A stretch of 64,000 nucleotides of DNA from an uncultured Francisella sp. (lineage in GTDB: Bacteria; Pseudomonadota; Gammaproteobacteria; Thiomicrospirales; Thiomicrospiraceae): contig CAZSGH010000002.1 in the NCBI GenBank assembly GCA_964606405.1, positions 34,719-98,718 of the forward strand. Reading direction: 5' to 3'. Positions 3,836 to 49,667 of this stretch are shown here, in pieces. The position numbers and the translations under genes are program-made. The number at the start of each line of letters is the position of its first letter. Position 1 is the stretch's first letter. The notes under the pieces were generated by a model. That model was not told where the DNA came from. It did no database searches and worked only from the letters and a program-made list of their open reading frames with translations.

Positions 3836-4043
3836 GATGATTCCTCTTTGTGCACTATGCATTTTTGATATTATAAAGCATCGAAGGCAAACAGTCTGAA
3901 AATAAGTTTTTTCTCAAAGAGCACATGTATAAATTACAATAAAAACAATGCTGTGTCAACAACCTATACCCTCGATTATTATACCTTAGCAGCTTATACA
4001 CGACTCAACTTGTAACAATGTTGCTTCAAAATAGATCATTAAT

Positions 4044-32975: not shown

Positions 32976-32978
32976 AAT

Positions 32979-33926: not shown

Positions 33927-34206
33927 GAATTTTTAAAACTTTGTCTGCTGCAGAGATTCTGATCTTATTCTTGGCAATGTTCTTATTACCATCAATGCTT
34001 TCTGAAAACAATAAAATTGTTGATACAGGCATATTAAAAATATTGGAGTATTTATTTAGCAAGTCAATACTAGGAGACTTAACACCTTTCTCAATCTCGC
34101 TTAAATACGAGTTAGATATCTCAAGTCGTCCAGCCAACTCAACTTGTGTGAGCTGATGGTAAGTTCGAAGAAGCTTTAGTGCTCTATTAATCATTGAATT
34201 TTCCAT
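33880..34206 (-). CDS. XRE-family HTH regulator
   Basis: 108 aa with LTQVELAGRLEISNSYLSEIEKGVKSPSIDLL. Its 3' end overlaps the RT start. Confidence 0.8.
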   Translation of the reverse strand: MENSMINRALKLLRTYHQLTQVELAGRLEISNSYLSEIEKGVKSPSIDLLNKYSNIFNMPVSTILLFSESIDGNKNIAKNKIRISAADKVLKILEWLADYDSIAPKAA

Positions 34207-34242
34207 TGTTGAGACAAAGGGATACTGCTATTTTTCATTCGT

Positions 34243-34368
34243 CTATAAAAACCAGTAACAAAACTGGCTAAACAACCAATAAACAAGCTTGATTACAGCA
34301 GACTTCACAAGAAATCTTTTGATACGCTTAACAACAGTTCCCTGCTCTTTGGAAGATTTTTGGTCCAT
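34243..34368 (-). CDS. Possible 41-aa small membrane protein
   Basis: AAGGAG lies 6 nt before the ATG. Sequence MDQKSSKEQGTVVKRIKRFLVKSAVIKLVYWLFSQFCYWFL has a basic N-terminus and a hydrophobic C-terminus. Confidence 0.35.
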   Translation of the reverse strand: MDQKSSKEQGTVVKRIKRFLVKSAVIKLVYWLFSQFCYWFL

Positions 34369-35434: not shown

Positions 35435-36841
35435 CTATTCCCCAAGCAGTTTACCAAAATCAATATTGATGACACTATAATCATTATCTGCAACTTCTAA
35501 AAAAGTGCTCTCTCTAAAGTAATAATATGAATCATTTAATTTTTTTATAACTTCATCAAATTCTAATAATTTAATTGGTTCATTTTTTACAAAAAAATCA
35601 TGAATGCGATTCATCGAGATAATTGATGATGCAAGACAAGTAAAAGCCAAAGCAAGCAAATTGTTCCCACTTCCTTCTTCAAGGTCTTTGATGAAGGCAT
35701 AGCTATTCGTAAGATCACAATCACACGCCCTTATCTCAACATTTAACCTATTAGTAATAATTTCAAGACGTTGACTAATAAATTTACGAAAAAGTAATAC
35801 TTCATCATATTTATTGTCCTGTATTAAACTCATCATTGTTATGAGTTCAGCAAACCAACAATTAGAGTTATTCACCAAGGATAGAAATAGTTCTTTTGCG
35901 ATCTTATTATTAAATGAAATAAGGTAATCAAACCTATTTTCAGTATACTCATCAATAAGATAAGTTTTATATATTGATGTTAATTCAAAATGAAATAGTC
36001 TATAAAGTCCATTAAGAAACTCTTCCAATGTTTGCGATTCAACCTCAATAAAAGAACGAACAAATCCATCTGGTAATAAACCAGAGAATTCTTTCATTTC
36101 TTCTAACAAACAATTTAGCTTCATCACGCCTGTAGCTACTTTATCAGCTGTCTTGAAGTTAGATTGGGAGTGATAGAATGACGTTAATTGCAGTTTTAAG
36201 TAAAATTTCGCATTAATTTCATTAATTTCATTAATATTTATAGTTGAATGCTTTATGGTTACATCCTGCCAGCTCTTATCTTTTTTCAATTCGTCATAGA
36301 TATCTACAGGGAGTACTCCTGTAATTGAACGACTCTTCCTAAGCTTAACATCAGAAAAAACGCGCGCTATAAGCTCACTACAATGAAAACTTAGTCTAGC
36401 GTCTCTTCTTTTACGTAGTTTTACTTTAAAATCAATTAAAAAGTTGTATGGTAGACCAAAATAATATAGTGCTTTACTAGAAATTTCATTTTGAAGATTT
36501 ACATTACCAGTAACCTTCTTGTTCCTCAATACTAAAAAACGTTCAACACCTTTATCGATAAAACCAGAAGATGATAAGCTGTCAATTGTTACACCTGACT
36601 TCAAAACATATTCAGGTAGCGAAAGCTCACGAGATACCATCTTCATCAACTCTCCTTTACTAGGTATTGAATGAAGCACAAGTCCCGAAGATATGACTAG
36701 ACCTACATGAGTAAACTCTTCCTGATAGCTTTTCGATCTTACTTTTTGATACAAAAGATTTATTTTAGCTAGCTTACCAGCGGACTTGATGAATAATACG
36801 TCACCAGGTTGTGGTACAAATTGTCCAACGTTTTTATCCAT
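35435..36841 (-). CDS. Permuted papain-fold (YiiX/NlpC-P60-like) peptidase domain fused to a ~270-aa helical domain
   Basis: Start at MDKNVGQF, where the ATG shares one base with the upstream TGA (TGATG). The order PGDVLF ... THVGLV (His) ... FHCSELIARVF (Cys) is as in permuted papain-like amidases. Confidence 0.6.
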   Translation of the reverse strand: MDKNVGQFVPQPGDVLFIKSAGKLAKINLLYQKVRSKSYQEEFTHVGLVISSGLVLHSIPSKGELMKMVSRELSLPEYVLKSGVTIDSLSSSGFIDKGVERFLVLRNKKVTGNVNLQNEISSKALYYFGLPYNFLIDFKVKLRKRRDARLSFHCSELIARVFSDVKLRKSRSITGVLPVDIYDELKKDKSWQDVTIKHSTININEINEINAKFYLKLQLTSFYHSQSNFKTADKVATGVMKLNCLLEEMKEFSGLLPDGFVRSFIEVESQTLEEFLNGLYRLFHFELTSIYKTYLIDEYTENRFDYLISFNNKIAKELFLSLVNNSNCWFAELITMMSLIQDNKYDEVLLFRKFISQRLEIITNRLNVEIRACDCDLTNSYAFIKDLEEGSGNNLLALAFTCLASSIISMNRIHDFFVKNEPIKLLEFDEVIKKLNDSYYYFRESTFLEVADNDYSVINIDFGKLLGE

Positions 36842-37317
36842 CACCCCACCCTCTCCAGCAGTGCATGGCAATGGGGTGACTGGGCGACAACGTCGGCGAT
36901 TTGATTGGCGAGTTCTTGATGCAAGTATTGCGAGCTTAGGTTGACCCAAACGAGTGCTAGACCAGCACTGGTGAAGGCTTCACTAAGAAAATTGTCACGT
37001 TTAATTCTGTCTTCGCGCTCATGAGATTTGTCGTTTAGTTCGACCGCGCACAGAAAGTTGAGTTGTTTATCAGTGATAACGAAATCGACATGCTTTTGAC
37101 TGACTTGAGAAAATAACCAATGCCAACCACTGCCCTTTTCGAACTGATTAACACTAGGCATAAGAATGTCGGAAACCCGAACTTTTCCGAACACACGGAA
37201 GGCATCGCCAGATATGGCATCGAGGGCATCTAAGAATTTTTGCTCCGCTTTGGTAAACAAAGCGCCTCTAGGCTTATAGAGGATGGGTGTAGTCATAATT
37301 AACTCGCTTTTCATCAT
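36841..37317 (-). CDS. DUF2726-like (restriction-endonuclease-fold) protein
   Basis: 158 aa. FTKAEQKFLDAL, RVFGKVRVSDIL, HVDFVI and AVELNDKSH fit the DUF2726 signature (D...E.x.K-like core). Confidence 0.62.
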   Translation of the reverse strand: MMKSELIMTTPILYKPRGALFTKAEQKFLDALDAISGDAFRVFGKVRVSDILMPSVNQFEKGSGWHWLFSQVSQKHVDFVITDKQLNFLCAVELNDKSHEREDRIKRDNFLSEAFTSAGLALVWVNLSSQYLHQELANQIADVVAQSPHCHALLERVG

Positions 37318-37358
37318 CGAAGTCAGCGGTTAATATACGCCTGAGCATTTAGTTTGTC

Positions 37359-37386
37359 AAAGGGGAAGAACATTCCCCTTTTTTAA
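37359..37386 (+). terminator. Hairpin plus T6; the stronger U-tract is on the plus strand
   Basis: AAAGGGGAA-gaaca-TTCCCCTTT followed by TTTT on the plus strand. The minus strand has only TTT. Confidence 0.45.
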
Positions 37387-37387
37387 G

Positions 37388-37927
37388 TTAATCGTCAATC
37401 TGTACACTCTCAAACCCACAACTGACCTTCTTAGTCTTGAGAAACTGATTGACCTCATGCAAGGTTAGCATGTCTCTATTGTGCAAAAGCTCAATACTTT
37501 CACGAAAGGTGGCGAGTTGTTGATAGTGCTTCTTCGCAAAAGCTACAATGCCATCCTCATAACTTGGCGCACTAGTTAGAAGAATACTAATATTTCGTGT
37601 TTGTTGAAACAGATCATCGCTTAACCACAATGAATGAGAAGATATTTCATTGATAATCGTGTGTGCATCTAGTAAACCATTCTTGTGTGAAAGCAGGATA
37701 TGGTACGGTAGTCTGTCATCGTCAATGACTGCTGTTTTTAAACTAGTAATCAGTTGTTGTATTGACTCGTATGCAGCGATTCGCTTTGCGATAACTAACT
37801 TGTAATAATCATGTTCATACCCACGATCTTTTACTCTGAGATTAAATCGCCCCGCTATGACTGCACCAATTGTGCCACCAATCACAGAGCTAGAAAGTAT
37901 TGCGATAACAAGTTGCTCAGTGGACAT
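37388..37927 (-). CDS. Hypothetical protein with N-terminal TM helix
   Basis: 179 aa. No family recognised. Confidence 0.45.
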   Translation of the reverse strand: MSTEQLVIAILSSSVIGGTIGAVIAGRFNLRVKDRGYEHDYYKLVIAKRIAAYESIQQLITSLKTAVIDDDRLPYHILLSHKNGLLDAHTIINEISSHSLWLSDDLFQQTRNISILLTSAPSYEDGIVAFAKKHYQQLATFRESIELLHNRDMLTLHEVNQFLKTKKVSCGFESVQIDD

Positions 37928-38133
37928 AATTAAGCTCGTTTAAAACTAAAAGTATCCCCATTGAATACTTCAGCAACAGGACTGGAAAGTTTAATACCAT
38001 ATTAGAAAGCCCTCTTATGACAGTGAATTCGGAGCTGCTCAACACGATAAATAAAATTATTGTTGTACATGATATCATTGAGGTGTGTGAAAAAGACAGA
38101 ATCATAGGCTGTTAATTTTTTAAGGAATAGATT

Positions 38134-38694
38134 GTGGTATATATAGTAAATCGCCTGTACATTGAGTTAAAAAAAGATATCCTATTCTTTGGCTCTTGTG
38201 GGGTATTAGTTGTATCTTTTTTCATATTACGCAGTGCATTTCAAGCACAAGGTGTCGGCTCCTCAGCATCATGGCCAGATGATCTTTTTTCTGATTTTAT
38301 ATCACTTGATGTCTTTGCCTTTTTATCGTTTGGATTTATTGTTCTAGCTTCTATCAATACTGCGATCTATTTGCTAGGTAAATCATGTACACGGCTTGAG
38401 GCTATAATTCAACATATTGAAAACCGCTTTACTCAACTTACAAGCTCAATCATGTCATTTAGTATCGGAATGGCCGTTGCTGCACTTGGTCATGCCATGA
38501 TGACATACACAGCTGGTGGTTTGGAGCTTGCCCTATTATTATTTGTGCTTAATACTTTACTGTTTGCTGGTTACTATGCAACGCTTTTATATGCTACTCG
38601 AGAGAAGCCTTTTGATAATTGGTGGGGTATATCAATTGGATTAACCCTAACATGTGCATGCTTTCTTTACCTTATCTTGAAAAATGTAAATTGA
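38134..38694 (+). CDS. Multi-TM membrane protein
   Basis: 186 aa with 5 hydrophobic segments, convergent with the cassette array. Confidence 0.5.
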   Translation: MVYIVNRLYIELKKDILFFGSCGVLVVSFFILRSAFQAQGVGSSASWPDDLFSDFISLDVFAFLSFGFIVLASINTAIYLLGKSCTRLEAIIQHIENRFTQLTSSIMSFSIGMAVAALGHAMMTYTAGGLELALLLFVLNTLLFAGYYATLLYATREKPFDNWWGISIGLTLTCACFLYLILKNVN

Positions 38695-38732: not shown

Positions 38733-38937
38733 GGTGTCGACCGCATAGCGGCGGAACCATGCTCAATCATTATTGTTTGCTACAATCAGTATTGATGGGG
38801 CATGGTTTGGGTAGTGGTGAAAGCAGGGCAGTAATCATATTCGGCTACTGCTGTTCCAACCCTAACTCGAATCGGCAATGCCCAGCTGAACTGGTCAAGT
38901 CGCACAGCCTCCCTCGCCCTCATCCGCAGTCTGTCCG
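38733..38937 (-). repeat. Conserved non-coding element, copy 1 (core only)
   Basis: About 90% identical to 40784..41078 apart from a 90-nt indel. Substitutions are spread evenly over all codon positions in every frame. Confidence 0.85.
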
Positions 38938-38960
38938 CCTTGCACGTATTGTTAGGGTAT

Positions 38961-39902
38961 TTATTTGGCATGCGTAATAGCGTTTCTTGAATCTGAAATT
39001 ACTCGGTCATAGCGCTCAATAAAGACAAGCATCTTGTCGGGGCTTTCTTGAAATGTCTTAATCCAACGAGATAATGCCTGCGCTATTTCATCTATTAAAT
39101 CTTTAAAGTTGAAGTATTGAGTGCCTAGGTCGGGATTTGGAATATATCCACTTCTTGCGACACAAAAGCTAATTCTCTTTTCTTTTCCGGACAAGACTTT
39201 TCTGGAATTCAAATTAGACATGTGAAGAACTGAATTCCGAAGCTCCCACAGTTGATGCTCGGTAATTTCCAATTTTTCAATTGATGCATACTTTGTTAAC
39301 CATTGAACGAAACCTTCTTTAACATCACCAAGCTCGAGATATGCGATCGTATCGATGAATGAAACAAGAAGCTTCATACACGATACATAGTGCTTTGCGT
39401 TAAAAAGAAGTTTTATTGCATTAAAGTAATCGTCGTTCAGCAATCGAGGCATATCAAAACCATCTGGCGTGATGTACGACTCCAGGTAATCTGCCATCAT
39501 ACCTTTGCCGAGCTTTGGATGATCTTCAAATGAGCTCACATAGAATGGATCATACCCGTGTGAGACATCTATCCGCGCCTCACCATTTACAATTGGAGTA
39601 ATGCAGAAAAGTGGGCTTTCAGGAGCATTGTGGCTAGCGAAAAACTCTTCAAAGACCTCCATGCTTCTCCCCGCCCTCACCAGTGCCATGTAGGAAGAGT
39701 ACTTAAATATGCCATCGGAAGTACCAATCGTACATGACCGCACGTTAGCAATATCTGCTATTAAGCAGTCGCTAGAAACAGATCTTCTAAGGAGTTCCAT
39801 TTTTTCTTCATCAGAGCCATCCATTTCATGCACTGCCACACCGAGCTGACTAATTTTTTCACCGTCAGTATAGAGAAAGCAGTTAAATATTTTTTCCTTC
39901 AT
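38961..39902 (-). CDS. Cassette protein with possible C-terminal HEPN-like domain
   Basis: 313 aa. WELRNSVLHM fits the Rx4H motif. No family recognised otherwise. Confidence 0.5.
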   Translation of the reverse strand: MKEKIFNCFLYTDGEKISQLGVAVHEMDGSDEEKMELLRRSVSSDCLIADIANVRSCTIGTSDGIFKYSSYMALVRAGRSMEVFEEFFASHNAPESPLFCITPIVNGEARIDVSHGYDPFYVSSFEDHPKLGKGMMADYLESYITPDGFDMPRLLNDDYFNAIKLLFNAKHYVSCMKLLVSFIDTIAYLELGDVKEGFVQWLTKYASIEKLEITEHQLWELRNSVLHMSNLNSRKVLSGKEKRISFCVARSGYIPNPDLGTQYFNFKDLIDEIAQALSRWIKTFQESPDKMLVFIERYDRVISDSRNAITHAK

Positions 39903-39931
39903 ATAGACCTTAGAAATTTCTCGTGGTCAAA

Positions 39932-39997
39932 CACCCTAACGTGGAGTTGAGTCGCCGACGCGTCTTTTCGCGAAGGTCGCCTCGAGTGCAGTGTTGT
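39932..39997 (-). other. attC-like site
   Basis: Minus strand: GCACAAC...TCGAGGCGACC..CGCG-aaaaga-CGCG..GTTAGGG. It shares TCGAGGCGACC with the site at 41137. Confidence 0.6.
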
Positions 39998-40017
39998 GCG
40001 CCTGTGGCGCAAAACGT

Positions 40018-40554
40018 TTAGAACTCATGAGGCTCGATGCCGAAAGAGATGTTTGAATAGCAGATCTTTGGATTTCCTGGATGCGGTGCATAGGACGAAC
40101 CGATGGCGATCTTATACACGGCCTTCCCCTCGAAGAGATTTCTTAGTTCGTCAGCGCGGTCTCTGAACCGATAGACGCCCTTATTCTTCAACTGGCCAAA
40201 AACCAGAAGGAACTCATTGTTCTCCGCTATAGCTTTACGCAAATCGAGATAGCATTTTGGATCTTTCGGAGAATCAGTATTGACTTTCTTGGTATCGATC
40301 CGCGAGTAGAGATTCAGCATGAGTATCTTGCCGACGTGATGGAAGTGCTCGAAAACGAACCGCTCAATGTATTCGACCGTCTTATCAGCGTGATCTGCAT
40401 TGGCGCAACTCGGGTTCTGCCCAATTACACAAAGTGTATGACCATCTTCCCTATCGAAGAACGGAAGGCAAAGCTTGCACCTGTGCTCTCCGTTGGCCGA
40501 AAAAACGGCTTCGATTTTTGACTTATCAACTTTAGCGAAGTGAGGAGTTCTCAT
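40018..40554 (-). CDS. DUF1643-like protein
   Basis: Start taken at MRTPHF. CVIGQNPSCANADHADKTV resembles the DUF1643 signature (.NPS.A....D.T). Confidence 0.6.
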   Translation of the reverse strand: MRTPHFAKVDKSKIEAVFSANGEHRCKLCLPFFDREDGHTLCVIGQNPSCANADHADKTVEYIERFVFEHFHHVGKILMLNLYSRIDTKKVNTDSPKDPKCYLDLRKAIAENNEFLLVFGQLKNKGVYRFRDRADELRNLFEGKAVYKIAIGSSYAPHPGNPKICYSNISFGIEPHEF

Positions 40555-40577
40555 TGGAATGGATACCCACAACCCTG

Positions 40578-41100
40578 ATTATACGGCAAGCCTGCCGTAT
40601 AACACCCACTAACAGTTTTCATCATAATCAAAACCTCTCCTACCACTTCATTTTAATGTGCTGCATGACATATATCAGCACCTACTTTGGCAAGATAATA
40701 GCACAACAATTAATAACTGTGTACAGTCTTAGTTAAGCATTAATAGCGCAAATGAATCCATATTAAACGGCATTATGCCCATTGGTGTCGACCGCATAGC
40801 GGCGGCGCCATGCTCAATTATTATTAGTTGCTGCAGTCAGTATTGATAGGGCATGGTTTGGGGTTATCACCCTCGACGATTTTCTGTTCGCGGGTACTAA
40901 ACCAGCTCAAAATCGGTTTAGCAGGTAGGCTAATTTTGTGCGGTGACTTGGGTAGTTGTGAAAGCAGGGTAGGCATCATATTCGGCTACTGCTGCTCCAA
41001 CCCTAACTCGAATCGGCGATGCCCAGCTGAACTGGTCAAGTCGCACTGCTCCCCTCGCCTTCATCCGCAGTCTGTCCGACTGCTTTCGTGTCGGGATTGG
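40578..41100 (-). repeat. Conserved non-coding element, copy 2 (full length, 523 nt)
   Basis: Fills the 5' part of the DUF1643 cassette. Ends in a perfect 10-bp hairpin TTATACGGCA-ggct-TGCCGTATAA. Contains a -10-like TTAAAAT box and a short leader ORF. Confidence 0.85.
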
Positions 41101-41136
41101 TAGAATGGGCAATTCAATTAGCCACGGATTCTTGCA

Positions 41137-41202
41137 AACTAACATACAAGCAACCTGCCTGCTCAGCCTTTCGAACTGGTCGCCTCGAACGAAGTGTTAG
41201 AC
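41137..41202 (-). other. attC-like site
   Basis: Minus strand: GTCTAAC (overlaps the stop codon) ... GTTAGTT. Confidence 0.65.
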
Positions 41203-41859
41203 TGTACGCTTTACAATGCGAGTTGTGATCGCGTGCGCCGGTTGAATAATGGCTTCTCTTCGGGTGTATCGCTCTTTATCTTGATCGTAATAGAGACCTA
41301 TTTCTCCAATTCTGCACTCCAGAAATTCGACTCCAAGCATTTGACCAAGTGGCTTCATCGCTCCGAGACGGTTTGCCTCCGTGCGGTTTCCATGAGTCTC
41401 GATAGCGATAGAGGTACTGCAAGCTTTGTACCCAGTTGAGCTATAGTCAATGACAAGACCTTCACCGGTTGTTTGTTCCATATCACTGGATTGAGATGCA
41501 ACAGCCTTGCTTGAGCCTCGCCAGTTGGTCTTTGCCTGAAAGGGAAGACCCTTCTGACGAAGAGTTTCTCCGAACTCATTAGACACAGATATTTGGAACA
41601 AGCCGTCAGAACCGTATAAGCGCTCAGGAGCATTGATGCCTCGCCCACGGAGCTTCCGATAGGAGACTTGTACCGTGTACTCCCCTGAAGAGCCAGTGAA
41701 CGTGATTGGACTTTTCATTGCTAACGCCTGGCCTAATGCCCCAGTTAGCGCGTCTTCATCTGCACTATTATCGTCGAAGCTTGCTTCGGCTGTCGCTACC
41801 CCTGCTATGTAACGGTCACGAAGAAAGTCAATTAGATGAGAGGGCAGTAAATCACGCAT
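41197..41859 (-). CDS. Cassette protein, unknown (possible D..QxK nuclease-like core)
   Basis: 220 aa with GSDGLFQISV ... KGLPFQAKTN. The assignment is weak. Confidence 0.5.
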   Translation of the reverse strand: MRDLLPSHLIDFLRDRYIAGVATAEASFDDNSADEDALTGALGQALAMKSPITFTGSSGEYTVQVSYRKLRGRGINAPERLYGSDGLFQISVSNEFGETLRQKGLPFQAKTNWRGSSKAVASQSSDMEQTTGEGLVIDYSSTGYKACSTSIAIETHGNRTEANRLGAMKPLGQMLGVEFLECRIGEIGLYYDQDKERYTRREAIIQPAHAITTRIVKRTV

Positions 41860-41884
41860 ACCATATCCTTTTGTTGTGTTTGCA

Positions 41885-41938
41885 GTTTAACGTCAGAGTT
41901 AACCAGGCCGCGTGCTTTCGGCATCGATCTGGTTGAGC
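41885..41938 (-). other. attC-like site
   Basis: Minus strand: GCTCAAC-CCAG-atcgat-GCCG-aaagcacg-CGGC-CTGG...GTTAAAC, with an asymmetric bulge. Confidence 0.7.
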
Positions 41939-42750
41939 GATTTGTTAGGGATCTGTTCCGGGATTGACCGGAACCAGTACTTAAAACCTCTTTCTAATAT
42001 TTCCTTATCAAAGAGTTTTTGCTCCATATTCATAAATACATACCCGTATTGGTTGAGCAACACTAGCTGAATTTCATAGCCACCTGCTTCTAGGTATTTA
42101 TTCAACTCTTTTTCTTTAGGCAAAATAACTGTGGTCTTGGTTGTTTTATGAGGGGCTATGGAAATCATTCCATTTACCGTCATACCATTTTCTGGTATCT
42201 GCACTTTTGCGCTGCCACTATATATAACAGATTGGGTCCCTGGAGAAACGGAACGCACAATATAAAATTCCGCCTTCCTATCTAAATCCGAGTTTTCATT
42301 CCATGTACTTTCAATCGTAACAGGTATCTTGATTTCCTGAAGCGCAACCTGCTGCTCTTCATTACCTTTTTTTGACGAGGATTCCAAATTTATTGTGTTA
42401 ATGAAGTTGCCAATGAATATAAGCAAAACACCAGCAATTACGCTGACCATTAAATTACCGACAAATCCTTCGTGCCATGACTTCTTGACGATTCTCTGAA
42501 CCTCGTTAGATATGGGTATGCGCTCAGAATCAGCCGATTTATCATCGGGTCCATTTGCTGACAAAAGCTCATCAATTAGATCTTTTATTGCTCTTCTATA
42601 ACCAGACCCTTCATCCCGATTACTTAATTGGTAGTCCGCTTTTTTAAGCACCGAAAGGGGAAATGACTCTAGCTCTGAGCGGTCACCATTCTTTAAGTAC
42701 CGCATTGCGGCACCCATAACCGCTTGCGATTCTTCATCTCTTGCTACCAT
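41899..42750 (-). CDS. Cassette protein, bitopic membrane protein of unknown function
   Basis: 283 aa with a single central TM helix (LMVSVIAGVLLIFIGNFI) and a beta-rich C-terminal half. Confidence 0.5.
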   Translation of the reverse strand: MVARDEESQAVMGAAMRYLKNGDRSELESFPLSVLKKADYQLSNRDEGSGYRRAIKDLIDELLSANGPDDKSADSERIPISNEVQRIVKKSWHEGFVGNLMVSVIAGVLLIFIGNFINTINLESSSKKGNEEQQVALQEIKIPVTIESTWNENSDLDRKAEFYIVRSVSPGTQSVIYSGSAKVQIPENGMTVNGMISIAPHKTTKTTVILPKEKELNKYLEAGGYEIQLVLLNQYGYVFMNMEQKLFDKEILERGFKYWFRSIPEQIPNKSLNQIDAESTRPG

Positions 42751-42763
42751 ATTTCTTATTGAT

Positions 42764-42817
42764 TCCTAACGTTTGAATTCAACGAGCTGGGCGGATTTTG
42801 CTCAGATCTGGTGAAAT
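42764..42817 (-). other. attC-like site (outer boundary uncertain)
   Basis: Minus strand: ATTTCAC...GAGC-aaaatccgccca-GCTC...GTTAGGA. Confidence 0.5.
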
Positions 42818-42834
42818 GATGGGGCAAGCGGCAA

Positions 42835-43356
42835 CTACGCATGGTTATTGACCGCTTTCCAAAGGGTGAAGACTGCTGGGTCGTTAATGCCCAAGTCGGA
42901 GAGTTTGTCAGCGATGCCGTTGACGTAGGATAAGCATGTGCCATCAGTGCCTGACGCAGCCAACACCATTGCGGCTAGCTCTTCGGTAGCCCTTCCTTCA
43001 ATGACATTTTGTCCGTTGTAGAGCGGGACAAGGGCCGACACTTCCGATTGATCCACAAGGCATACCAATAGCTTGTGAAGTCGGAATGCTTTTCCCTCTC
43101 GCTCTTCGAGGTAGGACAGAACTTCCACCTCCTGCGCATCTGGGAATTGAAAAGCAATGCCTCGACAAACGCTGGCATCAAGCTTAGAGAGATTGAGAGT
43201 TGGACCAGGAGCAGCTTTCGTACCCCAATTCCGCACCGATGCTTTGTTGAACCTGCGGCAATAGCCAGGGAGGTCAGCCACTGCTCGGCGAGTACAGCCA
43301 TGCTTGGCTTCCCAACCATCCCACATAAGCGACCCGTACCCAAACACCCACATCAT
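42835..43356 (-). CDS. Gamma-glutamylcyclotransferase-like (AIG2/ChaC family) protein
   Basis: Start at MMWVFGYGSLMWDGW, the typical FGYGSL N-terminal motif. Confidence 0.65.
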   Translation of the reverse strand: MMWVFGYGSLMWDGWEAKHGCTRRAVADLPGYCRRFNKASVRNWGTKAAPGPTLNLSKLDASVCRGIAFQFPDAQEVEVLSYLEEREGKAFRLHKLLVCLVDQSEVSALVPLYNGQNVIEGRATEELAAMVLAASGTDGTCLSYVNGIADKLSDLGINDPAVFTLWKAVNNHA

Positions 43357-43389
43357 CAATTCCTCAGTAGATCGGCGGTAGCTGTTGCC

Positions 43390-43446
43390 GCCCAACGTAA
43401 AATTAGCCGGCTCCGCGCTTTTGCGGAGTCCAGGTTGAATTTGGGT
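43390..43446 (-). other. attC-like site
   Basis: Minus strand: ACCCAAA..CTGG-A-CTCCGC-aaaa-GCGGAGCCGG..GTTGGGC, with an extrahelical A. Confidence 0.7.
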
Positions 43447-44627
43447 CAGACCTCATCGGGATATTTGAACTGTAGCAAGAAATCATAAATGCTCTCGACC
43501 GTATACCTGATATCTTCGTCACAGCTCAATCCGTCTGGAAAAGTGTAATAGATCATTCGTTTTTCCTGCGGAACAATCTTGGGATAGGGTACGCAACCCT
43601 CCTCGAGTCCAGCAAGCATATCGTCGGGGATGGGCACAATGGTTACTCTCCACTCGTCTCCGAATTCATGTTTAATGCGTTTTGCTAAACGGGTTCTGAC
43701 GGCCTCCCAGCCCGGAATGTATTTAAGCGTAAGATCCAAGGCTACAACGACAGTTTGGTGTTGAGGTTCTGCGCCTGAATTCGGTGCAGTTGGTTTTGCA
43801 GTATTGTTGAGTGCTAAAGCCGCCACTCGCTCCCTCAGTGCCCTACAGATTTGCGTGTAGCCGTCGGGCGTGAATTCGTCAACCCAGTGCCGCTGAGAAA
43901 GACGGTCTGGAACGTCACAGACCTCCAACCGAATTGGAACGACAAATATCACGCCCTCAGGCTGCTCATCGGCGACGTCCAATGCAATTCGGATTTCCTT
44001 CTGTACGAAGCCAGATTTAATAGTTGAACGCGTGGAAAGGCAGACCAACACGACATCGGCAATTTTAACGGCGCGTCTGATTTCCAGTTGCCAGTCTTGA
44101 CCAGCAATTAGATCCTCTTCATCGAGCCATGGCGAGAAGCCATCTCGCTTGAGCTTGTGATACAGCTCGCGAACTTGTGGCTTGTCTTCAGAAGCGTGGC
44201 ACAAGAAAACTCGAAGTGGGCGATTGATAGGTGCCACTATCAATGGGGTACTCGCGGAATTGATCACCGGAGTCGCTAGTCCGTTCGCGGTGTGCATGAC
44301 GTGGTCGGAGAATTGAGGACCGAAACGTTTGATGATCTTCGAACGAAGCTGCTTCACCTCATCTGGCGTCGAAATTCCAAAACGATCACACAGATCTAAC
44401 AGGAACTCGTACTGATCCTTCGGCGAGAAAACCGCGAGATTCTGTTGAAGTGCTGTTCTTTTGTTTGGAGCGTCAAACGGATAAGTGCTGTGTGGAGGAT
44501 CAACATTGCAATCTACTGCCCGTGCGTTGCAGTACTCGACAATTTTAGAACCCGAGAGTCCACGTGAGGTATCCGCCAGAATCTCTGCTGCGTGGTTCAA
44601 AAAGGATGCGGGTATTCTGTCGGACAT
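43446..44627 (-). CDS. TIR-domain protein with unknown N- and C-terminal domains
   Basis: Start at MSDRIP with an AAGGAAG RBS. TIR core is RVFLCHASEDKPQVRELYHKLKRDGFSPWLDEEDLIAGQDW...VVLVCLS...FVQKEIRIAL, including the conserved Glu. Confidence 0.78.
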   Translation of the reverse strand: MSDRIPASFLNHAAEILADTSRGLSGSKIVEYCNARAVDCNVDPPHSTYPFDAPNKRTALQQNLAVFSPKDQYEFLLDLCDRFGISTPDEVKQLRSKIIKRFGPQFSDHVMHTANGLATPVINSASTPLIVAPINRPLRVFLCHASEDKPQVRELYHKLKRDGFSPWLDEEDLIAGQDWQLEIRRAVKIADVVLVCLSTRSTIKSGFVQKEIRIALDVADEQPEGVIFVVPIRLEVCDVPDRLSQRHWVDEFTPDGYTQICRALRERVAALALNNTAKPTAPNSGAEPQHQTVVVALDLTLKYIPGWEAVRTRLAKRIKHEFGDEWRVTIVPIPDDMLAGLEEGCVPYPKIVPQEKRMIYYTFPDGLSCDEDIRYTVESIYDFLLQFKYPDEV

Positions 44628-44641
44628 GCAGGTGCTTCCTT

Positions 44642-44689
44642 GGCTAACGTTCAAGCTAAGGGGCGGAGCGCTTTTGCGCCTGATTAGCT
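44642..44689 (-). other. attC-like site between the cyclase-like and TIR ORFs
   Basis: Minus strand: AGCTAAT-ca-GGCGC-aaaa-GCGC-T-CC..TTAGCT..GTTAGCC, with an extrahelical T. Confidence 0.55.
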
Positions 44690-45559
44690 TTTCTTTGTAT
44701 CGATGTTGCATAGGCAATCTTGATTCCGAGTGAAATTATTAGCTATCTCGTTGTGGTAGTTGGCAAGCCATTTGTATTTGGCTTTTACATCATCATCATT
44801 AGCACCAGTATAAGCACGTTTGATGTTTTCTGAATGTGTTTTTAGCCATTCATCGATATTCTGGCGATACCCTTCGTCCATGATTTTGTTTTTATCTTTC
44901 GGCGAAGAAAGGCGATATTCATCGGACCGCTCTTTTGATCTCTGCCATCCAACCCCTTCCAAGCATATGGTCATATAGTCAATGTAGAAATGCTTTTTAC
45001 CATTTATTTCCAGACATCTAAAAACTCTAGGTATTGGATCAAAATCATCGCTGTAGTACTCGCGATGGGAATGCTTTGAAAAATAATCATAAACTCGATC
45101 AGTGAGTGCGATAACTGGAACTGATACAGCAACTTCCGATTTATATGCGTTAACCATACTCTGGCTAATTAATGTGGCGTCCTTCTGATACCACCACCCA
45201 AGATCAAGGCCACCACGGATAAAGAGTGAATTGAGACAACAGACTCCTTGACCATAAGCAAAACTCGTAATCTCAGACATTATTGAGTCAAAAGTGCCTT
45301 CGAATTTCGTAGCTTCGGATTCGAGCGGTATATTAACCACCACACAATCTGAGAATGCCAAAACAGTTGTCTTGTGCATTTCTTGCACTTCGCGAGTTAA
45401 ATCATCGTCGGTTTCGAAATCAAAAGCGTCCTGAATGAGTTTTACGCCTTTATGTATTTCTTTGATGTCGTCTATGCTCTTCGCAGCAAGTACCTTGTTG
45501 CCAAAACCTAATATATCGATGAAGGCAGTGACTCCGACGGAAATATCTTTTTCGTCCAT
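44684..45559 (-). CDS. Nucleotidyl-cyclase-like (class III cyclase / palm-fold) protein
   Basis: 291 aa. VTAFIDILGFGNKV resembles F.DI.GFT, VLAFSDCVVV resembles the second metal Asp strand, and IRGGLDLG...ISQSMVNAYKSE resembles RIGIH.G...G..VN.A.R.E. No search was run. Confidence 0.5.
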   Translation of the reverse strand: MDEKDISVGVTAFIDILGFGNKVLAAKSIDDIKEIHKGVKLIQDAFDFETDDDLTREVQEMHKTTVLAFSDCVVVNIPLESEATKFEGTFDSIMSEITSFAYGQGVCCLNSLFIRGGLDLGWWYQKDATLISQSMVNAYKSEVAVSVPVIALTDRVYDYFSKHSHREYYSDDFDPIPRVFRCLEINGKKHFYIDYMTICLEGVGWQRSKERSDEYRLSSPKDKNKIMDEGYRQNIDEWLKTHSENIKRAYTGANDDDVKAKYKWLANYHNEIANNFTRNQDCLCNIDTKKS

Positions 45560-45580
45560 ATGGTATCGGTTGCTCTTGAA

Positions 45581-45646
45581 AACTAACGTTTGAGTTCAGC
45601 CGCCTGAACGCTTTTTGCAAAGGTCGGCTGCAACGATGGGTTGGGC
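45581..45646 (-). other. attC-like site
   Basis: Minus strand: GCCCAAC..TT-G-CAGCCG-A-CC..GGCGGCTGAA..GTTAGTT, with two extrahelical bases. Confidence 0.75.
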
Positions 45647-46453
45647 CTAGGCATTGATTAAACCAAACCCAGTATTGAAGTAAGGATGAATGGAAACGTC
45701 CATATGATTGAGCCAGTCTGCATACGAGGACAGATCGTTCAATAGCTGCACAAAAGGGAATCCTCGCAAGTCTTCTTCCAATGGCATTAGGTAGAAGGTG
45801 TCTTTCGGAATTACGCAACCGGTCGACGCGCGTGTTTCACTTCGAAAGAACCTAATCATGTATTTCCGGTTAACGACTATTCCTTTCGGATAGCGGCGGT
45901 ACGGAATATTAGGATGGTTACTATAAAAGGCATTTACATGAGCAAGGCACGTTTCGCCGCTGATACCTTCGTAAGCGAATACGTATAGCGACGGATGGCG
46001 TTCAAGAAACGCTTCGCTTGATCCGGTCTTAAGAATTTTGAAGCCAAATGCTTCCATGCTTGGCTCAGGAATGCTGGATAAATTAGTAAGCGCATCAATC
46101 AAGGAGGCCTGATTTAAGGTCGTTTTGACTGTAATTGCACCCGCAACGCTTTCTGTTGTGACAAAGGTCTTTTCATTTTCGTCAAACCTCACACCAAGGT
46201 CATTTGAAACAATCACATCGATCTGTCCGGATTCACTGCCGTTGTGAGAAATGACCTGTCCGCCAAGAGAGGCATAGAGTCGCCTTGGGAGATGGCGAAG
46301 CAAGAAATCTCTAACAATATCTTCCCGATTTGACCCAATGTCTGGTCGGTGTTGTGCGGTGCTTGCGATAAGCGAAGCACTTGCGATCTTGTCTGCGACT
46401 CCGTTGAAGTAGTTTTGAATTCTTGTCACCGCAAACTCCCTGTGTAGGCCCAA
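45647..46453 (-). CDS. PD-(D/E)xK-like nuclease-fold protein (DUF6602-like by recollection)
   Basis: GSNREDIVRDFLLRHLPRR, SGQIDVIVSND and TESVAGAITVKT give a D...E.K arrangement. The true start may be GTG at 46429. Confidence 0.55.
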   Translation of the reverse strand: MGLHREFAVTRIQNYFNGVADKIASASLIASTAQHRPDIGSNREDIVRDFLLRHLPRRLYASLGGQVISHNGSESGQIDVIVSNDLGVRFDENEKTFVTTESVAGAITVKTTLNQASLIDALTNLSSIPEPSMEAFGFKILKTGSSEAFLERHPSLYVFAYEGISGETCLAHVNAFYSNHPNIPYRRYPKGIVVNRKYMIRFFRSETRASTGCVIPKDTFYLMPLEEDLRGFPFVQLLNDLSSYADWLNHMDVSIHPYFNTGFGLINA

Positions 46454-46458
46454 CCATA

Positions 46459-46733
46459 ATTATACGGCAAGCCTGCCGTATAACACCTACTAACAGTTTT
46501 CATCATAATTAAAACCTCAGTTTAACAACAACTTCATTATAACGTGCCGCATAACATATTCTGCACCTATTTTTGCAAGATAATAGCACAACACATAGTT
46601 ACTGTGATCAGTATCGAACGGGCATAATTTAAGGCTTCTGCACATCGGCGATGCCCAGTTAAACTGGTCAGGTCGCACACCCTCCCTAGCCTTCATCCGC
46701 AGTTTGTCCGACTGGATTTTGTGTCGAAATTGG
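46459..46733 (-). repeat. Conserved non-coding element, copy 3 (internally deleted)
   Basis: Has the same hairpin, leader ORF and promoter-like part as copy 2, plus the distal ~95 nt of the core. The central ~270 nt are missing. Confidence 0.85.
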
Positions 46734-46735
46734 TT

Positions 46736-47308
46736 TCATACTGACAGAGCGTACCCCATAAATTCATTTTTAGTTTTACTTGTTTTGGAGGACAAAAACT
46801 CTTTAAGTTTATTAAAGTCATCAGGGTATAAATTGTTATACACGTCCCATGTAACTTTTATAGCTACAATAATAGGCATAACAACAAGGAAAAAGACTAG
46901 CAACACAGGAGATCTTGCGATAACTCCAAAAGCCATAATCATTGATAGTTTCTTTTCTAATAAGGCAACTTCACTTAATAAGACTGGATTATCTTCACGA
47001 AAAAAAGTTGTTAAGGGAGCACATCTTGCGTTCACATTGCCTTTAAGAAAAAGGTGAAACGTCAGCAGCCTTTGCCAAGTGGCTTTGTGAGTAAATCTTA
47101 TGAGAGAATTGATCCTTCTAACACCTTCAATATAACCATCTTCATCAAAAGAAATTGTGTTATTAGCTGCTAGATTAAAAAGCACATCGCGTTGCTCAAA
47201 AAGCCTTTGCCTAACAACAGACTCTATCAAAGATGGCCACAAGTAAAACCAAAGCACTAATAAAAACAGAAATGCGAAACCATTAATCATATCTGATAAG
47301 CTAATCAT
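46736..47308 (-). CDS. Membrane protein
   Basis: 190 aa with TM helices at both ends, last gene of the recombinase operon. Confidence 0.45.
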   Translation of the reverse strand: MISLSDMINGFAFLFLLVLWFYLWPSLIESVVRQRLFEQRDVLFNLAANNTISFDEDGYIEGVRRINSLIRFTHKATWQRLLTFHLFLKGNVNARCAPLTTFFREDNPVLLSEVALLEKKLSMIMAFGVIARSPVLLVFFLVVMPIIVAIKVTWDVYNNLYPDDFNKLKEFLSSKTSKTKNEFMGYALSV

Positions 47309-47319
47309 ATTTCTTATCC

Positions 47320-47694
47320 TTAATTGTCACTTGGATTTGTTGAACCACTAGGCAATATACCACTAGATTGACGATTAGGATGAATCATCAGCTCTAACTC
47401 TCTGATTCGTTCATGCATTATTTCTGTTTTTGATTTTCGAAAACGTCGCTCCATAAAGCCCCACAATGCAAGCCCTACTAATGCCAATGTACACCAGATA
47501 GGTTTAAAGAAAAAACCATTATTACCATCATCGAATGCAACACTAATATCTGCCAAGGTGGTTAACCCCGCAAACTTTGGAATAATCTCTATTGCAGCAT
47601 AAGCTAAAACACCGACCTTTCCCAGCCCCGACAAAAGACTAAACGTCTTGTCGATCACCATCTTAGTAAGTTCAAATTTTTGCTGTTTAGTCAC
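47320..47694 (-). CDS. Membrane protein
   Basis: 124 aa with 2-3 TM helices. Confidence 0.45.
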   Translation of the reverse strand: MTKQQKFELTKMVIDKTFSLLSGLGKVGVLAYAAIEIIPKFAGLTTLADISVAFDDGNNGFFFKPIWCTLALVGLALWGFMERRFRKSKTEIMHERIRELELMIHPNRQSSGILPSGSTNPSDN

Positions 47695-47706
47695 TTCGTA
47701 GCACCA

Positions 47707-49074
47707 TCAAACATTATTGAACTGTATTCTATCAGAAGTCCACAATGCCATCGCCATCATTTTATCTAAGGATATTAGGCCTGCTGGAAAGATAAACTCC
47801 ATCTTATCTAGACTCACAGTTACTGGTTCACTGGTTTCGTCTGGTAGTTTGGGTGGATTAGGTACTTTAATAGCGTCCCACACCAACGTTTCGAGTTTTT
47901 CCTGTTTGTAAAAAGCCAGCTTTTTTGCCTTTTGTACAAGGTAAGCTTGCGAGTTCATTCCTAATACTTCAATGTTGACGGGCTTAGGTGTATCGAGAAG
48001 GACAAAGTCAGGCACAATAGCACCAACTCGATGTGTCAGTGGTTTTGCAAAGCGTCGTCCTTCTGCAACAAGCTTTGAAACCATAACCTCTTCGTAACTA
48101 CCTGCAATAGGAATAAAGTGGCGAGTCGTCATCATGATTGCCATGTCAGAAATCAGCATGCGCATATTCTTTTTAGAAGAATTAAACTTAAAAGCCTTTA
48201 CCAGCATGACAAAACAGTACTTGTTCTTGTCTGGTCGTGAAAAAGCCGCTAACTCACGCCCGAAGCTTCTAAATAGTCGGTCCGCTAATGATGGATGTAA
48301 ATAAAAGTTTTGCATACCGTGCATGAATTTGAGCTTGATATTGAATCCACCACTTTTGGCTTCATTGATAAACAGCAGTTCGCCCAACATAAACGATGCC
48401 GTGTCAGGTGATAAGCCATTTATTGCGACAGCTGTAAAGCCATCGACAGGCTTTACAGCTGTAGCTGGCTTCTTAATGACCGTAAGAGACTCTTTAAGTG
48501 ATTGCTTGCCGTTAAGAATAACGGGCGTATCTGTTAAGTAGTCATCCATTAAATGATGAACTGTGTTCCATGATCGAGGATACTGACGGTCAGGATACCA
48601 TTGATTCAGCCGCACCTGTTCCCACATGAAATGTAACAGTCCCAACATATTTGTTGGCGCTTCTATTCTTTTTGCATGAGCAGGTGCATAGTTTGCAATA
48701 TCACTACTGGCTGGCAACTCACCGATCTCATTTTTTCGACGGGTCAACAAACCAGCAAGTCGCACATTAATACTACCGTCACCACCTTGGGAAATCCCCA
48801 TTAAAGCATCTTTATTGGCACCAGCTTGAGGATCGTAATACAAATGACAGGTAAGCGCATGCTCGACCATAGTGCCAGTAGTCCGCATTAAGAAATAACG
48901 TTGTTTGACTCGCGAAGCTACCACATACATTGGAACACCTGAAGCCTGGCAATCACACATGGGATGATGTTTGCCTTCATAAGCGCGATGCAGCACATCC
49001 TGTGCAGCGTGGTTAAGTGGATCTGTTAACCAGTCAGCGCGATGTTTCTCATTCCCGATTGCAATACGACTCAT
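47707..49074 (-). CDS. Cys/His-cluster protein of unknown function (possibly DUF1173-like)
   Basis: 455 aa with HHPMCDCQ...HALTCH near the N-terminus. Its ATG overlaps the recombinase stop (ATGA). Confidence 0.5.
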   Translation of the reverse strand: MSRIAIGNEKHRADWLTDPLNHAAQDVLHRAYEGKHHPMCDCQASGVPMYVVASRVKQRYFLMRTTGTMVEHALTCHLYYDPQAGANKDALMGISQGGDGSINVRLAGLLTRRKNEIGELPASSDIANYAPAHAKRIEAPTNMLGLLHFMWEQVRLNQWYPDRQYPRSWNTVHHLMDDYLTDTPVILNGKQSLKESLTVIKKPATAVKPVDGFTAVAINGLSPDTASFMLGELLFINEAKSGGFNIKLKFMHGMQNFYLHPSLADRLFRSFGRELAAFSRPDKNKYCFVMLVKAFKFNSSKKNMRMLISDMAIMMTTRHFIPIAGSYEEVMVSKLVAEGRRFAKPLTHRVGAIVPDFVLLDTPKPVNIEVLGMNSQAYLVQKAKKLAFYKQEKLETLVWDAIKVPNPPKLPDETSEPVTVSLDKMEFIFPAGLISLDKMMAMALWTSDRIQFNNV

Positions 49075-49631
49075 TCGACTTCCTTGATGGTGCGGTAGTA
49101 AGTGGCTCTGCTTATCTTAAAGCGTTTTGCAATTTCAGTGGGACTAATTTCTTGATTATTAGACATCAATTTAATCATTTTTTTATCAGAATCACTTAGA
49201 CTGACAGGACGTCCACCTTTACGACCACGCGCACGCGCTGTTTCCAGCCCTGCTCTTGTACGCTCACGAATAAGGTCACGTTCAAACTCTGCTAAAGCAC
49301 CCATGATATGGAACAGAAGTTTACCCGCTGGTGTGTTTGTTTCAATCTGCTCAGTTAGCGACTCAAACCCTATTCCTCTATTGGCAATATCTTGTACTAT
49401 CGTGATTAACTCTCTAGTACTTCTAGCCAATCGATCTAACTTCCATACCACAAGCACATCACCAACACGCAGCGCTTTTAGGCAAGCAGCTAACTCTGGT
49501 CGATCTTTACCAGACTTAGCACCAGATTGTGTTTCTTCGTATATAGTGTCGCAACCAGCAGCACGCAAAGCATCAATCTGAAGATCAACTGATTGTTGTA
49601 GTGTCGAGACACGGGCGTAGCCGATTTTCAT
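49071..49631 (-). CDS. Serine recombinase (resolvase/invertase family)
   Basis: MKIGYARVSTLQQSVDLQ (catalytic Ser), DRLARS, and a C-terminal HTH (ISPTEIAKRFKISRATYYR). Confidence 0.9.
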   Translation of the reverse strand: MKIGYARVSTLQQSVDLQIDALRAAGCDTIYEETQSGAKSGKDRPELAACLKALRVGDVLVVWKLDRLARSTRELITIVQDIANRGIGFESLTEQIETNTPAGKLLFHIMGALAEFERDLIRERTRAGLETARARGRKGGRPVSLSDSDKKMIKLMSNNQEISPTEIAKRFKISRATYYRTIKEVE

Positions 49632-49667
49632 ATTAGTTGTACCTATTGCCAACTCTCGGTGATTGGC

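Follow-up and report, generated by a model that had tools for sequence, protein, structure and literature searches.

How does a set of integron cassettes come to lie on a conjugative element that carries no integron integrase? The question is raised by a 64-kb stretch of DNA from an uncultured Francisella sp. (contig CAZSGH010000002.1; the whole stretch of 64,000 nucleotides is called the window here), in which eight single-gene units follow one another on the minus strand between positions 38942 and 46453. Here we analyze this locus, which is very probably an attC-site cluster without an integron integrase (CALIN) in the cargo region of an integrative conjugative element (ICE) of the mating-pair formation G (MPF-G) type. 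Elements of this kind are already known; the odd part of the locus, and the only one that could lead to something new, is a repeated junction element, termed X, at which the cassettes begin.

attC sites and cassette boundaries

Rfam holds no model of attC sites, and covariance models were built from attCs unrelated to the window. The sequence of the aadA1 attC was confirmed in the plasmid collection, 1962 records of which, R100 included, contain it with a best match of 99% identity or more. Model R1 comprises 12 class 1 attCs with visible boundaries, cut from the class 1 arrays of seven plasmids, and model R2 comprises 19 re-aligned attCs, namely the class 1 sites and those of an environmental integron (contig L036), none of them from the window. 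A sequence-only reading of the same DNA had claimed seven attC sites on the minus strand. The R1 search (both strands of the 64 kb, all filters off) gave its three best hits at claimed sites on the claimed strand: 45581-45646 (42.9 bits, E 2e-8), 41885-41950 (27.3 bits, E 1.4e-4) and 39934-39999 (17.6 bits, E 0.03). The six best hits of R2 (both strands, 128 kb of strand) are likewise all claimed minus-strand sites, which are listed here by R2 score:

45581-45646, minus strand: s1, 52.7 bits, E 3.3e-11
39934-39999, minus strand: s7, 34.8 bits, E 1.4e-6
41885-41950, minus strand: s5, 31.7 bits, E 8.5e-6
42764-42829, minus strand: s4, 14.6 bits, E 0.22; weak, degenerate
43390-43451, minus strand: s3, 13.5 bits, E 0.42; weak
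41137-41202, minus strand: s6, 10.1 bits, E 3.2; weak, degenerate
44642-44689, minus strand: s2, 48 nt; not detected by R1 or R2

Sites s1, s5 and s7 are significant attCs, and their R2 and R1 alignments show the full R''-spacer-L''-loop-L'-spacer-R' geometry; s3, s4 and s6 are the next-best hits. The claim of seven sites thus stands in its coordinates, in its worked example (45581-45646, which is exact) and, by the covariance scan proposed as its check, in three of its members. Of the architecture that had been ascribed to each site, boxes, arms and spacers can be followed in the alignments of the same three; defects are seen in s2, s4 and s6. In s4, which is 71% identical to s1 (repeat family D4), GCC replaces the AAC of R''. 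Site s6 has a canonical left half, and its right arm is not complementary to the left arm (fold z = 0.1). Site s2, whose R' context is canonical (GAACGTTAGCC) and whose loop motif GCAAAAGCG is that of the other sites, is too short and carries AAT at the end of R''. The seven gene junctions occupy, by our own estimate, about 0.5% of the searched strand positions; that the three weak hits all lie at junctions is therefore strong evidence for decayed attCs, not noise.

Minimum-energy folding of the bottom strand gives a bulged L stem in s1, s3 and s7, with energies near those of shuffled sequences; s3 alone folds clearly better than its shuffles (z = -2.4, two bulges). Fold energy is a poor test here, because the genuine VIM-2 attC reaches just z = -1.7. 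The covariance models were made from short attCs and miss long real ones (those of arr-2, qnrVC1 and dfrA32, and a visible attC in the Lamprobacter contig L037), so that the scores are a lower bound and negatives are weak evidence.

The division into eight one-gene cassettes is borne out. The units measure 626-1252 bp, every one starts with TT, and their leaders are 18-39 nt long; the spacing from R' to the next start codon, earlier given as 14-29 nt, measures 13-33 nt. The units are:

45587-46453, minus strand: cassette 1, DUF6602 / PD-(D/E)xK nuclease of 260 aa (GTG 46429 to 45647) with attC s1
44648-45586, minus strand: cassette 2, 291-aa protein with predicted class III nucleotidyl-cyclase fold (45559-44684) with doubtful or decayed s2
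43396-44647, minus strand: cassette 3, 393-aa TIR-domain protein (44627-43446) with weak attC s3
42770-43395, minus strand: cassette 4, 173-aa ChaC/gamma-glutamylcyclotransferase-like protein (43356-42835) with degenerate attC s4
41891-42769, minus strand: cassette 5, 283-aa protein of no family (42750-41899) with attC s5, which overlaps the end of the reading frame
41143-41890, minus strand: cassette 6, unassigned 220-aa protein (41859-41197) with degenerate attC s6
39940-40572, minus strand: cassette 7, 178-aa DUF1643 protein (40554-40018) with attC s7
38942-39939, minus strand: cassette 8, 313-aa protein with an RNSVLH (Rx4H) motif (39902-38961), left half-attC only

Cassette GC content spans 0.40-0.53 (window, 0.43), a spread that fits separate origins, as in a mosaic. 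The half-attC of cassette 8 reads CCCTAAC AATAC GTGCAAGGCG and is joined to a copy of X (copy 3) at a GGAC microhomology.

Two of the cassettes, 1 and 7, recur with the same boundaries in different arrays. The environmental contig L036 (29 kb, metagenomic) is a true integron, with about twenty small co-oriented genes and attC hits between them (at least nine); at its end lies a divergent 77-aa fragment of an open reading frame (ORF) reading ...LRLKRYSMRTEQAYLGWIKRFILFHG, which we take, by eye against IntI1, to be the N-terminus of an IntI. The DNA homology of cassette 1 to L036 (82% identity) runs from window position 46454, the G of G|TTGGGC, into the attC, beginning with GTTGGGCCTA and with the crossover at G|TTGGGCCTA. 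L037 breaks at the same base, 46454, and the cassette there is preceded by ...ATCAAC|GTTAGGCC. Cassette 7 and contig L039 agree over exactly 40572-39936, a stretch that opens with the TT behind the crossover G and closes with the GTTAG of s7. Homologues of the DUF6602 protein that are 71-87% identical occur in Trichlorobacter, Bordetella, Lamprobacter, Nitrosomonas and Ca. Manganitrophus, with a further one at 53% in Pseudoxanthomonas, and the distribution of cassette 1 across these genera is the pattern of a horizontally moving cassette.

The carrier element and the absence of an integron integrase

The window spans a chromosome-ICE junction. The chromosomal genes rplS-trmD-rimM-ffh lie at 0.2-3.9 kb, and a 304-aa Xer-like tyrosine integrase (4044-4958) adjoins ffh-rimM-trmD. 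Transfer genes follow at 5.7-29 kb, encoding a TraD/TraG-type coupling protein, a TraI_2 relaxase and TrbI/TraC/TraF/TraH/TraG_N proteins, a set which we take to be of the MPF-G (PAPI-1-ICEclc-like) type. From 47.7 kb on come backbone genes for a resolvase, DUF1173, SprT-like, SNF2 helicase, DUF6094 and DUF3275 proteins. The relaxase, coupling protein, type IV secretion genes and integrase at the chromosomal junction together identify an ICE. Because the array sits between the transfer block and the backbone block, "ICE cargo", as the sequence-only reading called it, is a fair description; its further term, a transferable package, is suggested by this location on the ICE. The ICE is present with an identical array in several metagenome contigs of one sample set (the longest, ERZ27247823:k141_1008435, has 125.7 kb), and no variant of the array was found among these contigs. 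Two of the backbone genes, both assigned with Pfam, matter below:

49071-49652, minus strand: serine resolvase
47707-49074, minus strand: DUF1173 protein, a backbone gene linked to X in relatives

No IntI was found in the window in Pfam and NCBIfam scans of about 50 of its 71 ORFs of at least 110 aa (all those of at least 250 aa included), and tblastn of IntI1 and of the L036 fragment against its six frames returned nothing besides the ICE-end integrase. The latter, the sole tyrosine recombinase found, lies 40 kb from the array; with the integron-integrase model TIGR02249, whose cut-off is 265, it reaches 36.8 bits and matches over its catalytic C-terminus only. The earlier statement that the 64 kb contain no intI is thus upheld by profile scans and tblastn, and likewise for about 7.3 kb past the right end of the window, where the gene table lists no recombinase. 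A complete integron would combine intI, attI and array; here there is no intI and no known attI, and three significant attCs lie within 5.7 kb with no IntI or IntI remnant nearby. For a CALIN the published definition asks for two or more attC sites in the absence of a nearby integron integrase (Cury 2016, PMC4889954), and the locus therefore falls within it. IntI-made CALINs at secondary sites are cited in the same paper, and one CALIN inside an ICE has been reported before (Cury 2017, PMC5587801).

The repeat element X and the origin of the array

The array consists of two sub-arrays, cassettes 1-6 and cassettes 7-8, which are split and bracketed by X, a non-coding repeat of about 0.5 kb with three direct-orientation copies on the minus strand. 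The sequence-only reading had treated the array as a single one, first and last cassettes included, and had missed the repeat, the split and the half-site of cassette 8. The copies are:

46454-46745, minus strand: X copy 1, partial (D1 start, D6 promoter-like box, D3 with Shine-Dalgarno sequence, ATGATG and 10-bp hairpin); ends at the G of G|TTGGGC
40573-41142, minus strand: X copy 2, complete, 570 bp (58-nt lead, then D1-D2-D6-D3), separating cassettes 6 and 7; its last base is the G of G|TTGTGG
38733-38941, minus strand: X copy 3, 5' half only (D1-D2), 92% and 90% identical to copy 2

Each sub-array begins exactly at G|TT right after X. The element runs from a conserved start (ACCAATCCCGACACGAAAGCAGTCGGACAGACTGCGGATGAAGGCGAGGGG; ACCAAT...GACTGCGGATGAAGGCGAGGGG; first 40 nt ACCAATCCCGACACGAAAGCAGTCGGACAGACTGCGGATG) through a variable middle to a promoter-like box, a Shine-Dalgarno sequence with ATGATG, a hairpin, ...TATG or ...CAGG and the crossover G. 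Copies 1 and 2 have diverged (94% identity in D3, 83% in D6). Their extended -10 promoter-like boxes read ATCACA-17-TG-TATTAT at 46608-46580 (copy 1) and TACACA-17-TG-TATTAT at 40723-40695 (copy 2). The hairpin is a perfect 10-bp stem within a 24-bp palindrome, TTATACGGCA-GGCT-TGCCGTATAA, present in direct orientation at 46460-46483 and 40579-40602, with fold z = -4.6 in copy 1 and -5.8 in copy 2. The head of X also contains a small ORF with a good Shine-Dalgarno sequence, MMKTVSRCYTAGLPYNYGWAYTGSLR (46436-46516, minus strand) in copy 1 and MMKTVSGCYTAGLPYNQGCGYPFQ (40552-40626, minus strand) in copy 2; its product begins MMKTVS..., its stop codon and the start codon of the gene in the first cassette overlap (GTGA, ATGA), and it may be a coupling leader.

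X is found in two relatives of the ICE. In L032, a Joint Genome Institute (JGI) contig, X (733-1008) directly follows the DUF1173 stop codon. In L034, a Thiotrichales metagenome-assembled genome whose DUF1173 protein is 75% identical and which is the nearest known relative of the ICE backbone, resolvase, DUF1173, 124-aa and 190-aa genes are followed in turn by a short X head that contains the hairpin (2885-3015), a duplicated DUF1173 3' end, a DUF2726 gene and the next X start (3805-3859). The block resolvase-DUF1173-124 aa-190 aa (window 47320-49652) is kept there. Right after the X hairpin of L034, at 3015-3250, the last approximately 65 codons of DUF1173 are duplicated, which looks like a recombination scar at the position of the cassette junction. 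X thus brackets inserts in two lineages, and the break after the X head lies at the same position in all three cases; TT and a cassette follow in the window only, not in the relatives. By these contexts, X is a backbone feature of the ICE, close to the resolvase-DUF1173 pair. The L034 peptide of the X head differs, but the hairpin DNA is kept, and the conserved feature of X is therefore nucleic acid, not peptide; an interpretation of X as a protein-coding gene was rejected accordingly.

Further identities of X were considered and rejected. Rfam searches of the whole window (gathering threshold) and of 38.4-47 kb (E <= 5) matched no family, and X is therefore not a known RNA, nor, in particular, a group II intron remnant, which was suspected since group IIC introns target attC sites. 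As a decayed 5' end of intI, X gives a sole alignment of 23% identity (E = 8) with stop codons. Searches for X returned no hits in viral contigs, none in plasmids and none by DNA pattern in genome contigs; among 17 pattern hits in metagenome contigs there is one true relative (L032), and the search of genome contigs with the DUF1173 protein yielded one more (L034). The X lineage is rare in the collections searched. Comparisons of X accordingly rest on three related sequences, whose consensus folds on either strand with almost no covariation.

For the CALIN we propose the following history. The cassettes would have been formed and moved by integron integrases in other genomes, and an IntI that acted in trans would have attached them to the ICE at the 3' end of X; that both sub-arrays start at the canonical G|TT after the same X 3' end is in keeping with such trans-joining. 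In the absence of a resident IntI, decay has reached about half of the attCs, and one is left truncated. With decayed attCs and no IntI, the genes are therefore probably largely fixed and travel with the ICE by conjugation, not singly, and the present mobility of single cassettes is doubtful since about half of the sites have decayed. Transcription probably starts from the promoter-like box in X ahead of each sub-array, because the cassette leaders have just 18-39 nt; no conserved promoter-like site was found inside the cassettes, where a simple scan lists some non-conserved ones.

Several findings weigh against this account. Four of the seven claimed sites fall below significance on their own, and s2, which escapes both models, is not rescued by their blindness to long attCs. 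Bottom-strand fold energies are mostly no better than those of shuffles. What stands ahead of the first cassette in either sub-array is not an attC, nor a recognizable attI, and a single secondary-site event would not account for two different cassettes joined to two diverged copies of X at one and the same base. In addition, five of the eight genes are without defence evidence.

Were the sites ordinary hairpins or terminators between co-oriented genes of a defence island, matching RYYYAAC and GTTRRRY by chance, the weak fold z-scores of most sites and the failure or near-failure of s2, s4 and s6 with the models would be expected. This is scarcely credible, and we consider it excluded: three sites reach E 3e-11 to 9e-6 with models from foreign attCs only, the six top hits all lie at the seven gene junctions, and the cassette boundaries match a real integron to the base. 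A different history, which we regard as unlikely, is a Campbell-type accretion of circular modules, each with one X and a pre-formed array, joined by homologous recombination between X copies or by a serine resolvase at the 24-bp palindrome, with integron chemistry acting only earlier and elsewhere. Three direct X copies do flank both sub-arrays, an unrelated insert (the DUF2726 gene) also lies between an X head and an X start in L034, the directly oriented palindrome has the size of the crossover site of small serine recombinases, a resolvase gene, in L034 still linked to X, lies some 2.6 kb upstream, and divergence between X copies is expected if the modules came from different sources. However, in both copies accretion leaves the exact integron crossover base at the junction of X and first cassette unexplained, neither res-like accessory sites nor more copies of the palindrome were found, and the junction of cassette 8 with X is a microhomology deletion (GGCGGAC/GTCGGAC), not a site-specific one.

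Rather improbable, too, is a more active role for X, as the docking and expression platform of this ICE family (an attI-like site plus promoter, without integrase) into which a host IntI inserts repeatedly, a "satellite" platform and not a passive fossil. Copies 1 and 2, though diverged, have the same end point, and a different cassette, starting at G|TT, comes after each. Three direct GTTR boxes and the palindrome precede the crossover (GTTAGTA..GTTATAC..GTTGGGC); we take these boxes to recall, loosely, the DR2-DR1-L-R layout of attI1. The extended -10 promoter-like box is conserved about 125 nt upstream of the crossover, and X is a feature of the backbone in the relatives too. Yet in L034 the X end runs into non-cassette DNA without GTT (GG|CAGAAAA, the duplicated DUF1173 3' end), X has no similarity to the attI of L036 and no IntI remnant beside it, and the searched collections contain just two or three related sequences, too few to judge conservation of the boxes. 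In its strongest form, which we put forward as a long shot, X with its promoter, hairpin and G|TT crossover would be a cargo-capture site that borrows the host IntI, and ICEs of this family would be integrase-free "satellite integrons" harvesting defence cassettes from the chromosomal integrons of successive hosts. If true, a capture site of this kind would account for the formation of CALINs on mobile elements that lack an integrase. As a CALIN on an ICE, the reading we prefer, the locus records to the base integron cassettes that are out of an integron and riding a conjugative element, a possible route by which compact defence genes from chromosomal integrons reach bacteria without an integron.

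Cassette genes, neighbouring genes and known systems

Profile searches and structure prediction bear on the protein labels that had been assigned to the cassettes from the letters alone. The PD-(D/E)xK-like protein of cassette 1 matches Pfam DUF6602 (1e-21) and, in PADLOC, PD_DExK (Cas-associated, 3e-23) and NucC effector models. Cassette 3 is a TIR protein (TIR_2, 2e-27), whose N-terminal domain matches the PADLOC candidate PDC-S32 (5e-17). The GGCT-like product of cassette 4 matches Pfam ChaC (7e-25) and that of cassette 7 Pfam DUF1643 (2e-12), and no family was found in profile searches for the product of cassette 5, putatively a bitopic membrane protein by its earlier label. The Rx4H motif of cassette 8 is read in the sequence as RNSVLH; a HEPN_Apea match (E 0.11) is below cut-off and covers a stretch other than this motif.

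The cyclase-like label of cassette 2 rests on structure prediction. No Pfam family was found for this protein, even with 40 homologues scanned singly, and the Guanylate_cyc profile was not matched. AlphaFold with the single sequence of the 291-aa protein gave a useless model (predicted local distance difference test score, pLDDT, 35), and an AlphaFold2 model built from the homologue alignment reached pLDDT 96.4. With the latter, the top 50 PDB matches in Foldseek are all class III adenylyl/guanylyl cyclases (E 3e-6, TM on target 0.55-0.63). D71 is invariant and D15 nearly invariant over the 40 homologues, and both are placed where metal-binding aspartates are expected. At the level of the predicted fold, the product of cassette 2 is a class III cyclase-fold protein. 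Its family has 666 cluster representatives at E <= 0.001, no Pfam model and the near-invariant motifs FxDxLGF, SD, RGGxDxG and C-terminal KYxWLxxYHN.

TIR and cyclase-fold proteins are typical defence parts. The description of the array as loaded with defence-like genes has support in three of the eight cassettes (DUF6602, cyclase fold, TIR) and is thus shown in part. From these domains, phage defence for the ICE host is a plausible function of the three, and the family of about 290-aa class III cyclase-fold proteins, encoded here by a cassette beside a TIR cassette, is a testable defence candidate.

Other parts of the ICE were noted in passing. At 32043-34300 (minus strand) a retron-like reverse transcriptase (RVT_1, 315 aa) comes after a helix-turn-helix gene listed in the gene table of the contig and ahead of a 5'-nucleotidase-family protein (E 5e-124); this may be a further defence module among the cargo of the ICE. 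Beyond the array, further cargo at 35435-38694 encodes a DUF2726 protein (36841-37317) and includes other ORFs as well: an overlapping one of about 470-500 aa, one of 179 aa and, in the opposite orientation, one of 186 aa. A BrnT/BrnA toxin-antitoxin pair lies on the ICE backbone at about 58.1-58.8 kb, and just past the right end of the window (L041 2320-4022) there are an umuDC-like pair (Peptidase_S24 and IMS) and a gene for a single-stranded DNA-binding protein. Homologues of DUF1173 with some 30% identity are present in 992 plasmid records, mostly conjugative, and the DUF1173 family is mentioned in a 2010 paper on new PD-(D/E)XK nuclease homologues (PMC3045609).

At the scale of single genes, cassette 1 resembles Damona, a validated one-gene anti-phage cassette of chromosomal integrons (Darracq et al. 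2024, bioRxiv 10.1101/2024.07.02.601686). Both have a DUF6602 domain with PD-(D/E)xK nuclease matches, the secondary matches of Damona being to Cas PD_DExK and to the small endonuclease/NucC of cyclic-oligonucleotide-based anti-phage signalling systems (CBASS); the likeness is drawn from domain profiles and the description in that paper. Anti-phage cassettes of chromosomal and mobile integrons (Damona and others; BRiCs, bioRxiv 10.1101/2024.07.02.601719) are, like the units in the window, compact single genes; those of the two papers sit in integrons, whereas the carrier here is an ICE without IntI. Cassettes 2 and 3 recall Pycsar in that the gene for the class III cyclase-fold protein sits directly ahead of a TIR gene. 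In contrast to Pycsar, no PADLOC Pycsar model is matched, no domain binding cyclic nucleotide monophosphates was found in the TIR protein, and the two genes are separated by an attC-like R'; homologues of the cyclase-fold protein adjoin, in both readable contexts, genes other than TIR. Assignment of cassettes 2 and 3 to Pycsar was rejected on the model match and on these neighbours, and they are treated as two cassettes.

Site s1 is closest to the VIM-2 attC, with which it shares a 7-nt R'', a 5-nt spacer, the left arm GTT-G-CAGCCG-A-CC, the right arm CGGCTG-AAC, a 6-nt spacer and GTTAG. The L'' arm GTTGCAGCCGACC is identical in the two, and the first extrahelical base of s1 on the folded bottom strand is C, as in VIM-2, G being more usual. 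Unlike these features, the central loop and the flanking genes are unrelated to those of the class 1 attCs of blaVIM-2 and cmlA5. As a whole, the locus matches the CALINs of Cury 2016 (PMC4889954) and the ICE case of Cury 2017 (PMC5587801) in having several co-oriented one-gene cassettes with attCs and no intI or intI pseudogene, and it shares with CALINs heterogeneous attCs, cassettes mostly without known function and, as in most of them, fewer than ten cassettes. It differs from other CALINs in that about half of its sites are decayed, in that it is split and bracketed by a 0.2-0.57-kb repeat of the ICE backbone, and in that its sub-arrays begin at the crossover base after X, not at an attC or a known attI.

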